A stretch of DNA of 64,000 nucleotides from Nitrosopumilus sp. (GCA_965207075.1 CBDBLO010000002.1:1920001-1984000); one strand, 5' to 3'; shown: positions 1 through 31,908, counted from the first letter of the stretch. Notes: generated by a model from the letters alone, not told the origin. A program made the numbers and translations.

Positions 1-2827
1 GGGACAGACCGAGCCGGGCTGGTTCGGGCCGCCGGGGCCTGACTGCCAGATATTCGACGTGGGCACGCGCCACGGACACTATTCGACGGTCTTTGACAGG
101 GCCAGGGCGCACCACCTCATGAGCAGGGTGGCAAGGCTGGTTCAGCTGTCCAGAAGCGCCTGGATACAGTTCGTGTTCAGGCGCCACTCATTCGACTCCT
201 TCCTACGCGGGCACGTGAGCCGCCTCGACGCTAGGGCGCTCGAGATCAAGCAGGGTAACTATCTCAGCACGGCCGAGCTCATCACGCTTTCGGACAAAAA
301 GCCGCACGACCACCCGGAGCTGGGGTACGACTTTGCCAACAATTATGCGGGCCTCCAAAAGCACGCCACGCTCAAGACGCAGTCCGCCCAGGTCATCATG
401 AGCGTCCGCGGCATGATCAGGGGCGACCGCGAGATCAACCTCAACTTTGACGAGATCGAGTCCCTCCCGGTGGAGAACATATTCTCGGGGCACGAGCACC
501 TGACCAAGTTTCCATACAGAAACCAAGATTTCTGGGACGAGAAAAAGCCCAAGAAGGTGGAGATCCGCATAACCGACAGCAGGGAGCGGTTCCCCCGCAT
601 GGACGTCTTTGCGCGCAGGCTGCTGCCAGATCCCGACAAGCTGCTGGGTGCCGCCCGGGGGAGGTACTTTGACAAGGGGCTGCTGGGCGGGTACCGCGAC
701 CGCCCCCCGCTGCCGTTCCTCATACTGAACCTCTCGGAGATCCCGCTGCTCGTGCACCTGCCGGATCCCGTGGACACCCCGAACATAGAGGCCACCCGGG
801 GTGTTACGATCCCCTCGAGGTCATCTGCAAAGGCGGGCGCGCCGCTGGGGTTCTTCAGGCCCAAGCCAAGAGACTTTGACTGGGGCAAGACATGGGGCGT
901 CGTGGTGCCCTCCAAGGACGAGGACGCCGCGGTGATATCACCCGCGGATTTCGCCACCCACGTGTATGCGGTCGGCGCGTCAGGCTCGGGCAAGACCTCG
1001 CTTGTCAGGGTTATCGCAAAGCACTTGGAGGTGTGGAACGAGAACGGAACCATGCGCAACGCGTTCATTTACGTGGATCCCAAGGGGGACGACTCCCACA
1101 AGTTCGTCAGGCAGTGCGGTCCGGGCCCCATATCGGACGGGCGGATCCACTTTCTGGACCCCCAGAAGACAAAGTTCTCGATAAACCCGCTGGAGCTGCC
1201 GGACCACTCGCCGTGGGAGCGCGAGGAGGTCGTGTCTAGGCACGTCGGATATTTCATGAAGACCATAGAGGAGTGGTACCAGCAGTCTGCCAGCTACGTG
1301 CAGATGGAGCGCATCTTCCGCGCGCTTTTGTTCTACATGTACATGAAGCACGACGCGCCCACCTTCCTTGACATCCACCACGTCATACTCCGGCTCCAGG
1401 ACAGCGGACAGCAGGCCATGCCGGAAATCATACAGACGTACGGCACCCCCGAACCCGAGATGAGGCAGGCGCTCGACAGTATCGCCACCCTCAAGGGCGA
1501 CGCGTTCACACCCCTGCTCAACCGCGTCGAGCAGTTTGCGACAGACCCGGTGCTCAGGCGCATGTTCTCGGTCAGGAACGGCACCGTCGACTTTGGCGAG
1601 CTCATACAACCGGGCCACCAGACCATAGTCCGCATATCGCCGCTGAACATGCCCCACCACGTGCAGCCCCTGGCGATGCAGGCGTTCATACTGAAGCTGT
1701 GGTTTACGATACAAGAGCGGGCCAACCGCACGCCCGACGAGTCGGAGCGCACGCAGGTAGTACTCGCGTTAGACGAGTTCCAGATTGTAAAGGACCTGCA
1801 GGTGCTGCAGCTTATGCTGGAGCAGGCAAGGTCGCTGGGGCTCGGACTCGTACTGTCACACCAGACCACCGAGCAGATAAGCGACAAACAACTGGGACTC
1901 ATCACAGGCAACTCGGGCACGCAGCTGGTCGGCAAGGTGAACGGCAAGGACGCCTCCCGCATCGCCCAGATCTGGGATCCTCAGTTCCTGAAAGAGCTGC
2001 AGCAACAGCTCTCAAGCCAAGAGTACTTTCACTGGACGATCCGCGAAAAGGCGCCGCCGGGACTCGAGCAGCCTCCCCCTGTCCAGTTCTGGCTCTCCAG
2101 ACCGCCGGACATGATGACGGGTGACGCCGAGTATGACGCGTTCGTCAGCAAGCAGCTGGCCAAATACGGCGCAGGCGTAATCGGCCCCGACGCAATCGCG
2201 CAGGCGGCCAGGGAGAAGAGCATGTGGCTTGGGAACATCACGGTAGAGCTGCCCCCAAAGCTGGAGTGGGGGATAATGCGCCTCCTGCACGAGAACTCTG
2301 AAATGCAGCAGGGGGAGCTTGCCAAGGGACTCAGGGTCCAGAACCGCGACGAGGTGGCCGCGGCGCTCCGAGACATGGAAGGCAGGGGGATAGTGGAGCG
2401 TACAGGTACGGTGCGCACCTCGCCGTACAGGCTTTCCAAAGAGATAGAGCGGACGTATTTTGAGCTCGACCATGCGGAGGTGGGCACCGCGCCCGACGTT
2501 GCCGAGGTGGCAGATAAGGCGGTCTCGGCATACCTCAAGGAGGGACTGTTCGTGGCCGCCGCCTCCCAGCGGATCAAAAAAGGCAGAGACCGAACCGACC
2601 TGGTGGCCTATGACTATGCCCGGGAGGTTCCGATAAGCGTCGAGATAGAGTCGGTCAGCGAGGTGGACAGCCACCCGGAGCACGTCATGTACAACATGAC
2701 AAAGTGGGCCAAGATGGGCTTTGTCGAGTGCCACGTCTGGTCCAAGAGCCCCAAGATAAAGGGCATCAGGGAGCAGCTTGACGGAGAGCAGAAAAAGAGG
2801 GTCTCCGTGATTGTCATTTCATCCTGA
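1..2827 (+). CDS. HerA/TraD/VirB4-like P-loop ATPase with C-terminal winged helix and PD-(D/E)XK-like domain (copy A, 5' end outside window)
   Basis: Walker A GASGSGKT, YVDPKGD, Walker B LALDEFQ, EQARSLGLGLVLSHQ. C-terminus has RTDLVAYD...SVEIES. Near-identical to 21413..24547, whose homology extends upstream of position 59. Confidence 0.85.
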   Translation, partial: GQTEPGWFGPPGPDCQIFDVGTRHGHYSTVFDRARAHHLMSRVARLVQLSRSAWIQFVFRRHSFDSFLRGHVSRLDARALEIKQGNYLSTAELITLSDKKPHDHPELGYDFANNYAGLQKHATLKTQSAQVIMSVRGMIRGDREINLNFDEIESLPVENIFSGHEHLTKFPYRNQDFWDEKKPKKVEIRITDSRERFPRMDVFARRLLPDPDKLLGAARGRYFDKGLLGGYRDRPPLPFLILNLSEIPLLVHLPDPVDTPNIEATRGVTIPSRSSAKAGAPLGFFRPKPRDFDWGKTWGVVVPSKDEDAAVISPADFATHVYAVGASGSGKTSLVRVIAKHLEVWNENGTMRNAFIYVDPKGDDSHKFVRQCGPGPISDGRIHFLDPQKTKFSINPLELPDHSPWEREEVVSRHVGYFMKTIEEWYQQSASYVQMERIFRALLFYMYMKHDAPTFLDIHHVILRLQDSGQQAMPEIIQTYGTPEPEMRQALDSIATLKGDAFTPLLNRVEQFATDPVLRRMFSVRNGTVDFGELIQPGHQTIVRISPLNMPHHVQPLAMQAFILKLWFTIQERANRTPDESERTQVVLALDEFQIVKDLQVLQLMLEQARSLGLGLVLSHQTTEQISDKQLGLITGNSGTQLVGKVNGKDASRIAQIWDPQFLKELQQQLSSQEYFHWTIREKAPPGLEQPPPVQFWLSRPPDMMTGDAEYDAFVSKQLAKYGAGVIGPDAIAQAAREKSMWLGNITVELPPKLEWGIMRLLHENSEMQQGELAKGLRVQNRDEVAAALRDMEGRGIVERTGTVRTSPYRLSKEIERTYFELDHAEVGTAPDVAEVADKAVSAYLKEGLFVAAASQRIKKGRDRTDLVAYDYAREVPISVEIESVSEVDSHPEHVMYNMTKWAKMGFVECHVWSKSPKIKGIREQLDGEQKKRVSVIVISS

Positions 2828-3152
2828 GCTTTTCCATCCGGCTGGGCCCCCGGTCCGGCTTGCGCTCTAGAGCCTCGGCGAGATCCACCATGTAGCCGCC
2901 GTCACCTCCGCCCGCGTCTTCCGGCGGCCCGTCATACTTGTCAAGCGCGGCGGAGTCCTTGTCGGCTTCCGCGATGTCCTTCTTGGTGATGTCGGACTCG
3001 ACGGGCTTCATGATGACCTTGTTCTTTGATACGGCGAATCTGACGTACTGGTTTCTGCGTATACCGAGCGCGTGGACTATCTGGAGCGGTATTGTCACGG
3101 TATAGGAGCCCTGCCGGAACTGGACCTTTCTCTGCACATCTTTGAGTTCCAT
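2814..3152 (-). CDS. AbrB/MazE/SpoVT-fold DNA-binding protein (copy A)
   Basis: RKVQFRQGSYTVTIPLQIVHALGIRRNQYVRF...KVIMKP is the swapped-hairpin signature. ATG at 3152 lies 17 nt below a TATA-like motif. Confidence 0.85.
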   Translation of the reverse strand: MELKDVQRKVQFRQGSYTVTIPLQIVHALGIRRNQYVRFAVSKNKVIMKPVESDITKKDIAEADKDSAALDKYDGPPEDAGGGDGGYMVDLAEALERKPDRGPSRMEKLRMK

Positions 3153-31856: not shown

Positions 31857-31908
31857 AGTGAGATTTAACCTGCTGGTTGAGTTCGAGTTACTTTCGATTC
31901 GAACTCTC
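31765..31908. repeat. Integrase-5'/att-like repeat, copy 3 (in frame with the integrase)
   Basis: Aligns with 14648-14792 and 18565-18673. Confidence 0.85.

Follow-up and report, generated by a model that had tools for sequence, protein, structure and literature searches.

An actin-ATPase-AbrB module in two inverted copies

The DNA analysed here (the window) is a 64,000-nt stretch of Nitrosopumilus sp. (GCA_965207075.1 CBDBLO010000002.1:1920001-1984000; G000:C2:1920001-1984000 in our own numbering), which belongs to a genome of 2.23 Mb with 60% G+C and whose proteins have their named relatives in Nitrosopumilus, Cenarchaeum and Nitrosopumilaceae. Positions 1-3546 and 20685-25517 were found to be inverted, diverged copies (A and B) of one module, in which a ParM-like actin gene, a gene for a VirB4-like ATPase and a convergent gene for a small AbrB-fold protein stand beside a repeat array, and which we read as the backbone of a mobile element. 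Its features are as follows.

2-2827, plus strand: ATPase A, 5' end cut by the window start; the full gene (1045 aa) starts 311 nt upstream, at genome position 1919690
2814-3197, minus strand: AbrB-fold protein A, convergent with ATPase A with a 14-nt 3' overlap; likely start 3152
3216-3342: array A, upstream of AbrB A; three 22-nt units and more TGCAT motifs, 6 ATGCAT
3425-3477: hairpin A, GC-rich, 10-bp stem; -16.2 kcal/mol, z -3.6
20756-20808: hairpin B, GC-rich; -17.7 kcal/mol, z -3.9
20897-21066: array B, ATGCATATCATGCA-type units upstream of AbrB B and entering its annotated 5' end; 9 ATGCAT
21025-21426, plus strand: AbrB-fold protein B, C-terminal tail ...SRMEKLRMR conserved; likely start 21079
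21413-24547, minus strand: ATPase B, 1044 aa, Walker A motif GASGSGKT
24585-25517, minus strand: actin B, in the same orientation as ATPase B, which begins 38 nt downstream; 15 codons shorter at its start in the database form
25692-26212: non-coding palindrome region upstream of actin B; a 150-nt tandem duplication with a palindrome of perfect 20-22-nt arms in each unit, and a third palindrome at 26165-26212

The longest pair of inverted arms (1-2115 and 22122-24236) was 89% complementary, and further arms (2123-2286, 2300-2844, 2921-3204, 3216-3334, 3365-3430 and 3425-3477) paired with 20756-22114, complementarity over all arms (1-3477 against 20756-24236) ranging from 71 to 94%. The two ATPases were identical at 829 of 941 positions (88%) and the two AbrB-fold proteins at 97 of 131 (74%). 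These arms and identities confirmed what the initial annotation had described, namely two inverted, diverged copies sharing the ATPase, the convergent AbrB gene, a TGCA array and a hairpin. The extent that it gave for copy B (20685-24547) was right as to homology but too short, as the homology continues through the actin gene. It had also raised the question of whether an actin gene, palindromes and an integrase precede position 1: actin A does lie directly upstream (genome 1918765-1919652, 90% identical to actin B), whereas McrBC genes were found there in place of palindromes and integrase. The common unit of A and B (actin > ATPase > < AbrB, repeat array and GC-rich hairpin) measures ~4.8 kb, and outside it the flanks differ and the cargo is wholly different, as had been stated at first and as domain annotation of the neighbours bore out. 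The module had been counted twice; in the whole genome there are five ATPase loci (A-E) and four actins (A-D).

Comparison of A with B gave a ratio of nonsynonymous to synonymous substitution rates (dN/dS) of 0.14-0.21 at dS 0.38-0.73, values that show purifying selection on both copies, which have thus been kept functional and are not the result of a recent in-place duplication. In a phylogenetic tree, A, B and a copy from another metagenome-assembled genome (MAG) formed a fully supported trio of unresolved order, and C and D formed a separate clade. Origin of A and B by recent duplication in place was ruled out by the dS values together with this equally close copy in another MAG. Other genomes, too, hold members of different clades, several lineages coexisting per genome.

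AbrB-fold protein, repeat arrays and hairpins

Single AbrB sequences matched Pfam MazE_antitoxin (PF04014) at 6.2e-4 (copy B) and 4.5e-3, under the cut-off, and a 15-sequence profile searched against the Protein Data Bank (PDB) gave eight best matches that were all of AbrB/MazE/SpoVT type (top E 1.9e-4), so that the AbrB fold first assigned to this protein was upheld. Its extreme C-terminal short helix is conserved (...LEKLRMK or ...PLDRLEIK) and the linker is variable. Co-variation of this tail with the presence of actin was considered and dropped, a similar tail being found in actin-less loci.

Tandem arrays lie directly upstream of five of the six AbrB-like genes in the genome, with a unit that differs in each (22-nt in A, ATGCATATCATGCA-type in B, 33-nt in C and D, ~38-nt at an orphan AbrB gene near 2063 kb). 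The 2.19-Mb contig contains 360 ATGCAT in all, and only two clusters of at least 4 (gaps of at most 80 nt) were found in it, both at the promoters of AbrB A and B, indicating that the arrays are not due to chance. The 53-nt hairpin, at a conserved distance from the array in A and B and visible also in C and D, was 94% complementary between A and B, and none of 200 shuffled sequences was equally stable. The palindromes upstream of actin B (25763-25808, 25914-25958 and 26165-26212), which occur only there, have perfect or near-perfect arms of 20-23 nt and predicted folding energies of -18.5 to -24.2 kcal/mol (z -9.6 to -10.9). Contig joints that go back 45 nt at 25914/25958 fall in these palindromes and look like assembly effects.

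Related elements were also seen to carry, beyond the AbrB iterons, micro-arrays of 100% identical units (19-nt units repeated 12-15 times or 15-nt units repeated 10-33 times), located as follows.

L013: 6223-6453
L014: 12717-12995
L015: 12178-12477
L016: 12923-13419
L019: 2424-2571

ATPase with a VirB4-like motor, a winged helix and a nuclease-like domain

Searches with the single ATPase, actin and integrase sequences against PDB sequences returned nothing useful (best E 0.54, 0.058 and 1.1, respectively). Pfam TrwB_AAD_bind was matched by the window ATPases at 25.3 and 27.2 bits (cut-off 20.5; E 8.9e-06 for copy A); their TraG-D_C match falls below the Pfam cut-off, and relatives of the ATPase carry Pfam TraG-D_C and T4SS-DNA_transf. 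An AlphaFold2 model built from 30 relatives (mean predicted local distance difference test score, pLDDT, 84.3) gave for ATPase B the order VirB4-like N-domain (~1-370), RecA-type motor (~377-810), MarR-like winged helix (~850-925) and C-terminal alpha-beta domain. The modelled motor aligned best with the VirB4 C-domain 4ag6 (VIA-align Z 23.5, root mean square deviation, rmsd, 3.3 over 335 aligned residues) and also with TrwB (Z 21.2). Full-length TrwK/VirB4 (35-802) aligned with model residues 28-821 (Z 15.5, rmsd 7.0, 570 aligned), indicating that the N-domain is VirB4-like as well. The Walker A residues G434, K435 and T436 and the acidic pair D695 and E696 are invariant among the relatives. 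Over the 1044 residues of ATPase B no 19-residue window reached a Kyte-Doolittle value of 1.6, i.e. no membrane anchor was found, and the protein, as modelled, is a soluble translocase of the VirB4/TrwB/HerA type.

The last 219 residues were modelled separately (pLDDT 90; residue numbers here are those of the 219-residue model). The MarR-like winged helix was recovered in this model (Z 10-12), followed by a domain of alpha-beta-beta-beta-alpha-beta order (H111-124, E128-132, E145-149, E154-161, H170-181, E187-192) in which D144, E159, E161 and K179 are invariant in 16 sequences (D...ExE...K). The winged helix filled the lists of both structure searches, leaving the last domain without a clear structural match; Foldseek gave it one row, to Cdn1, a CARF nuclease (E 8.3e-4), and leads from the language model pointed to Replic_Relax, CoiA_nuc, AHJR-like, PDDEXK_3 and PDDEXK_11 (scores 0.81-0.85). 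The domain order, the Cdn1 row and these leads together make the C-terminal domain a likely nuclease. The translocase/nuclease proposed at first thus stands, by structure and profiles, as a VirB4/TraD/HerA-type motor with a nuclease-like tail.

Actin and its predicted contact with AbrB

Actin B matched Pfam MreB_Mbl (E 1.4e-12, 47.5 bits, cut-off 27) and PHROG 691 'partition protein' (1.1e-11), and ALP_N under the cut-off (7.1e-4). The nucleotide-binding motifs DxGTG, GQGTxE and SGGG are invariant across 24 actin sequences. Judged by its sequence, the protein is a ParM/ALP-like member of the actin fold.

Prediction of an actin-AbrB complex gave an interface score (ipSAE) of 0.47, which lies in the weak band, against 0.00 for the best control; the runs agreed in at least 79% of contacts, with a partner pLDDT of at least 58. 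The ipSAE mark is reached by 58 of 80 solved complexes and by 2 of 110 mismatched pairs, scores of at most 0.60 taking in 7 of the 80 and both mismatches. The initial annotation had an actin working with an AbrB adaptor, a pairing with which the modelled complex is weakly consistent; the AbrB tail, found with or without actin, does not identify the partner.

Linkage of the genes across Nitrososphaerota

In a GTDB family sample of 201 genomes from 27 genera, the ATPase was found in 24 genomes (9 genera) and the actin in 21 (9 genera; a count that includes the unpublished genome G077), both often in several copies per genome, a patchy distribution over several lineages. A scan of public genome contigs with the actin profile revealed 64 loci, all but one from Nitrososphaerota, whose architectures were called by hidden Markov model searches of their open reading frames (ORFs). 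Among 29 loci with high-identity actins, 27 could be judged downstream and 21 of these had the ATPase there; in the eight loci fetched with an actin identity of at least 57%, the ATPase directly follows the actin without exception. The full order actin > ATPase > < AbrB, with AbrB at most 60 nt from the ATPase end, occurred in 18 loci, each of which also has tandem arrays upstream of AbrB (18/18). The periods of these arrays are mostly 22, 32-33, 43-44 and 53-55 nt, i.e. mostly near multiples of 11 nt. The genes are therefore linked elsewhere, as the initial annotation implied.

Other arrangements were observed at lower identity. In seven loci the actin is convergent with AbrB and the ATPase is absent, and four of these seven carry an integrase of the same family as the window's ~4.5 kb upstream; in three further loci (L028-L030) an ATPase of 45-48% identity stands with a convergent AbrB and no actin. 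Since actin-AbrB pairs without ATPase and ATPase-AbrB pairs without actin both occur, AbrB is the common partner. Behind most of the other low-identity actins stands a conserved ~95-aa gene, as in the classical parM-parR order. Taken together, the actin family behaves like a mobile-element partition actin with swapped adaptors.

The ~95-aa product is a basic protein (MLxKxERxF...) whose gene is co-oriented with and overlaps the distant actin, a candidate ParR-like adaptor seen in Nitrosotenuis, Nitrosotalea and other Nitrososphaerota; its positions are as follows.

~7750-8130 in each of L066, L069, L071, L076, L078, L079, L084, L097 and L101: gene of the ~95-aa protein

Sibling copies C, D and E

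The ATPases of C and D are each encoded by two overlapping genes, one for the N part and one for the C part. All three siblings have, upstream of actin or ATPase, genes for a 97-aa protein with two transmembrane (TM) segments and a 143-aa membrane protein; the nearest language-model neighbours of the former are T4SS_pilin/TrbC clusters (0.82-0.84), which is a lead only. C and D additionally have a membrane-anchored 375-aa protein and an 1139-aa surface protein, the latter with no Pfam, PHROG or PDB-sequence match. No VirB2/VirB3/VirB6-type membrane genes adjoin A or B, and no VirB6-like protein was recognised. The pilin-like and membrane proteins of the siblings suggest that the family probably works with a type IV secretion-like apparatus, to which it is probably tied rather than being a self-sufficient minimal element, and A and B may be reduced forms dependent on the fuller copies. 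The minimal integrative element envisaged initially is weakened in this respect; the accompanying statement that Rep, relaxase and mating-pair genes are missing holds for A and B but does not extend in full to C, D and E, with their pilin-like and other membrane proteins.

A further protein common to C, D and E (128-158 aa) combines a CxxC...C.H motif with an N-terminus of ribbon-helix-helix-like type. It directly follows the ATPase in E, and homologues lie near distant actins in L027 and L032. Its genes are located as follows.

C2:719411-719797, 1775070-1775510 and 1151474-1151950: 128-158-aa protein of C, D and E

Integrase, ~150-nt repeat and possible excision

Beyond actin B, at the far side of its cargo, lies an integrase gene, and a repeat of ~150 nt occurs three times in this part of the window.

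30054-31856, minus strand: tyrosine recombinase (integrase), a divergent 600-aa ORF; probable true start ATG ~31535
14640-14800: ~150-nt repeat copy 1, candidate attachment or recombination site
18570-18679: ~150-nt repeat copy 2, left edge of a 13.1-kb segment holding copy B
31765-31912: ~150-nt repeat copy 3, over the integrase 5' end; right edge of the 13.1-kb segment

The window integrase alone had no Pfam match and matched NCBIfam XerA only at 1.3e-3. Its family comprises 1527 representatives at E <=0.001; a profile of 34 relatives matched the archaeal XerA structures 4a8e (3.6e-09) and 5hxy (1.7e-05), and 9 of the 34 matched PF00589. R258, K303 and Y423 are invariant and R383, R388 and H415 nearly so. 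The family profile, the PF00589 members and these catalytic residues confirmed the 600-aa ORF as the tyrosine integrase for which it had been taken, with a conserved core at residues ~115-460 from which the start given above was deduced. At 30153-30403 contigs of three sequencing runs skip 249-250 nt where the gene encodes the low-complexity C-terminus of the integrase, as a strain variant or through paralogues. Another paralogue of the integrase, the third (72% identical), was found at a distance of 4 kb from the orphan AbrB gene, which has a six-unit array (C2:2057422-2063800, locus L038); no actin or ATPase lies between the two, so that this is probably a decayed or rearranged element.

The ~150-nt repeat has 10 matches in the genome, two of them at the 5' ends of integrase genes. 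Rfam gave nothing at gathering score and ARAGORN no tRNA in the window, indicating that the repeat is neither a recognised RNA nor a tRNA target. Excision was examined on Logan contigs of four sequencing runs. One contig of run X1 joined 18679 to 31820, skipping 13.1 kb with the insertion sequence (IS), copy B, its cargo and the integrase, at a depth of 86.8 against ~240-265 alongside; no other place in the assembly carries such a junction. This joint is a hint, and only a hint, of excision of the 13.1-kb segment; an excised circle had been proposed at first.

A proposed mobile-element backbone and its rivals

We read the module as the backbone of a family of integrative elements, in which an actin partition cassette with an AbrB-fold centromere binder is joined to a conjugation-type translocase, a proposal toward which our belief and our doubt are about equal. 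Support is good for its being the backbone of a mobile element; how partition and transfer work in detail can be proposed plausibly, as follows. The backbone of these integrated elements of Nitrosopumilaceae would gather defence genes around itself. Its AbrB-fold protein would bind to the direct repeats, element-specific and helically phased, that precede its own gene, repress that gene and form a centromere-like nucleoprotein complex. The ParM-like actin would capture this complex, probably via the short C-terminal helix of AbrB, and would segregate an excised plasmid-like form in the manner of type II ParMRC, a step with weak in silico support. Going by folds and neighbours, the soluble VirB4/type IV coupling protein-type motor, presumably hexameric, would recognise, cut or nick, and pump element DNA for transfer, acting in the fuller siblings with the pilin-like and small membrane proteins, and the divergent tyrosine recombinase would integrate and excise the element at the ~150-nt repeat. 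A bolder idea is possible but doubtful: AbrB on phased repeats would be a centromere binder of a kind new to prokaryotes and a handle shared by two motors, the actin for segregation and the soluble VirB4-type translocase-nuclease for export or processing of the element. On that idea the module would be the first partition system for DNA known from archaea that is based on an actin, and the vertical and the horizontal inheritance of the element would be physically coupled.

Among known systems, type II ParMRC partition is like the module in its actin-fold ATPase of the ParM/ALP kind and in a small dimeric DNA-binding protein beside a direct-repeat array that overlaps its own promoter, an arrangement known for the module from sequence, with binding predicted. 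In the SXT/R391 integrative and conjugative elements (ICEs), ParMRC is likewise carried on a mobile element able to integrate, and there the ParM-type system is reported to serve the excised form (PMC4489591). The module differs in that its adaptor has the AbrB swapped-hairpin fold and not a ribbon-helix-helix, is convergent, with the 3.1-kb ATPase gene standing between it and the actin, and has the repeats upstream of its own gene instead of the actin gene, as well as in its archaeal host. To VirB4/TrwK and VirD4/TrwB the ATPase is tied by its RecA-type motor (Z 21-23.5), VirB4-like N-domain and TrwB_AAD_bind score above the cut-off, and to type IV secretion by the pilin-like neighbour in the sibling copies. 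Unlike those ATPases, it has no membrane anchor and has an extra winged helix and nuclease-like domain; unlike type IV secretion loci, A and B have no VirB6, VirB8 or relaxase genes beside them, and some of the ATPases are split into N and C genes. The TraB/clt system of Streptomyces transfers double-stranded DNA by a single motor of the FtsK/HerA superfamily, and resembles the module in that the motor has its own winged helix and a short-repeat locus lies beside the gene, whereas the module's motor belongs to a different branch of the superfamily and its repeats lie at the AbrB promoter.

Cryptic integrated elements and ICEs of Thaumarchaeota, i.e. of the same phylum, are like the present ones in having tyrosine integrases, defence genes and copper-protein cargo, and their ICEs were defined by VirB4 + VirD4 pairs, VirB6, TFIIB and ParB (Krupovic et al. 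2019, PMC6563490, main text). The words actin, ParM, AbrB, MreB and SpoVT are absent from that main text, and its supplementary tables may list such genes. With this limit on PMC6563490, full-text literature searches revealed no paper describing the combination of actin, translocase and AbrB, in agreement with the opinion given at first that it is not a named system.

Several observations weigh against the mobile-element reading. Copy A has neither integrase nor palindromes nearby, so that within the A/B pair only B has an integrase, and domain, PADLOC, NCBIfam and PHROG scans of copies A and B found no replication gene, no relaxase of a known family and no VirB6-like channel. The excision joint comes from one contig in one of four runs, at 90% likeness, and falls inside a ~10-copy repeat family at non-equivalent positions of the repeat. 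The complex score lends actin-AbrB binding weak support, and the AbrB tail is found also in actin-less loci (L028-L030: ...NPLDEVF) and in ATPase-less loci; occurring with or without either, it cannot show which motor is contacted. The likely nuclease was called from the order of secondary structure, acidic residues, one Cdn1 row and leads below 0.9. Copies A and B both sit among defence genes, and the motor resembles DndH-C (Z 23.0) and HerA chains from three defence complexes (Sir2-HerA, DUF4297-HerA and TdpAB; Z 19-20), with a PADLOC mad8 match to ATPase residues 422-755 (E 7.5e-15).

These ties to defence ATPases speak for a rival reading in which ATPase-nuclease and AbrB would form an anti-virus defence system, a translocase like HerA/DndH/MAD8 degrading foreign DNA, with AbrB as a repressor or antitoxin-like brake, the actin as an accessory and the patchy, multi-copy distribution reflecting turnover of defence islands. 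Such systems share with the module the motor fold (Z 19-23), an associated nuclease function, here predicted and fused to the motor, and the defence-island setting; MazE antitoxins share the AbrB fold, and McrBC, Gabija-like genes, methyltransferases and a PD-T4-4-like ATPase are neighbours. However, a winged helix precedes the nuclease-like domain, which is fused in cis, the partners (actin, AbrB, iterons and integrase) belong to no listed defence system, and no other mad1-mad8 genes were matched among the nine proteins scanned. Over its full length, N-domain included, the ATPase is closest in structure to a conjugation ATPase, and actin-AbrB pairs occur without the ATPase. As a mobile backbone accounts better for the iteron arrays specific to each copy, the actin of partition type, the integrases of a single recurring family and the pilin-like and membrane proteins of the siblings, we regard the defence explanation as quite improbable.

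It is unlikely, too, that AbrB and its repeats are merely a transcriptional switch or a control of copy number or origin, with the actin using another, unseen partner or serving the host cell and the genes being neighbours without physical contact of their products. AbrB proteins are classical repressors, each array coincides with the promoter of AbrB, tail motif and actin show no co-variation and the complex score is weak; moreover, such a role has been proposed for a SpoVT/AbrB gene that lies next to a putative origin in plasmid pT26-2 (PMC2926602). Against this, AbrB has been kept beside the actin in two architectures and across 30-90% actin divergence, its C-terminal helix is conserved while the linker varies, and the controls of the complex test scored 0.00. 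The centromere of ParMRC, moreover, likewise serves as a promoter. Least probable of all is that the host has domesticated the module for DNA import or export in the manner of crenarchaeal Ced/Ted, compared here in general terms, and that it is not part of a selfish element. The VirB4-type ATPase together with pilin-like two-TM and small membrane proteins in C, D and E would suit it, but the module occurs in only 24 of 201 family genomes, often as several diverged copies in each, lies beside integrases, IS elements and defence cargo, and in A and B comes without membrane components.

With three genes and a repeat array, the module is a compact and widely conserved candidate that is amenable to in vitro work. 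Few microbes of the ocean and of sponges are as abundant as ammonia-oxidising archaea, in which, to our knowledge, plasmids, conjugation and partition have not been the subject of experiments; the module may supply parts for their long-sought genetic system. If the backbone reading is true, the module would extend actin-driven DNA segregation to archaea, with an adaptor whose fold is non-canonical, and the elements would show how defence islands assemble and move in ammonia-oxidising symbionts. Sponge metagenomes were among the sequencing runs that contain window DNA at a small share, and no RNA run was among those listed.

Cargo genes and genomic surroundings

The genes around the two copies are listed below.

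3688-9386: cargo by copy A; a 203-aa protein, a GHKL/MORC-like ATPase (4296-5852, minus strand) and DNA methyltransferases (6208-8553, plus strand; 8550-9386, minus strand)
9956-13588, plus strand: Gabija-like pair; OLD-type ATPase-TOPRIM (9956-11686) and UvrD helicase (11690-13588)
15024-18563, plus strand: surface protein, 1179 aa, with Ig-like, transthyretin-like and cupredoxin domains
18719-19726, minus strand: IS630-type transposase
26742-27668, plus strand: SDH-type ClpP-like protease, between actin B and integrase
28506-29993, minus strand: AAA_15 ATPase with a PADLOC PD-T4-4_A match (4.6e-40), between actin B and integrase
within 26742-29993: 150-aa protein, between actin B and integrase

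The Gabija-like pair was assigned by Pfam DUF2813 (8.5e-48), OLD-like_TOPRIM (1.4e-13) and UvrD-helicase (1.7e-61). Just upstream of the window (C2:1915869-1918684) lie genes for McrC and for an McrB-like AAA_5 GTPase with a lysine/glutamate-rich repeat insert, divergent from actin A and ~80 nt from it. Annotation of McrBC, the Gabija-like pair, the methyltransferases and the PD-T4-4-like ATPase bore out the defence cargo predicted at first. A weak MAD3 match (9e-06) came from an unrelated cargo ATPase. In sequencing run X6, cover was zero over 26465-28789.

Inside the surface-protein gene, 17507-18508 holds three perfect 300-nt copies at a 351-nt spacing, which are very recent or have been homogenised. 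Two more DDE transposases and an HNH endonuclease lie at 33193-34470, 45914-46909 and 48548-50002 of the window, and beyond the element there are housekeeping genes (argininosuccinate lyase, succinate dehydrogenase and aIF5B). Since the transposase and HNH genes stand between the element and these housekeeping genes, the variable region extends to ~39 kb.

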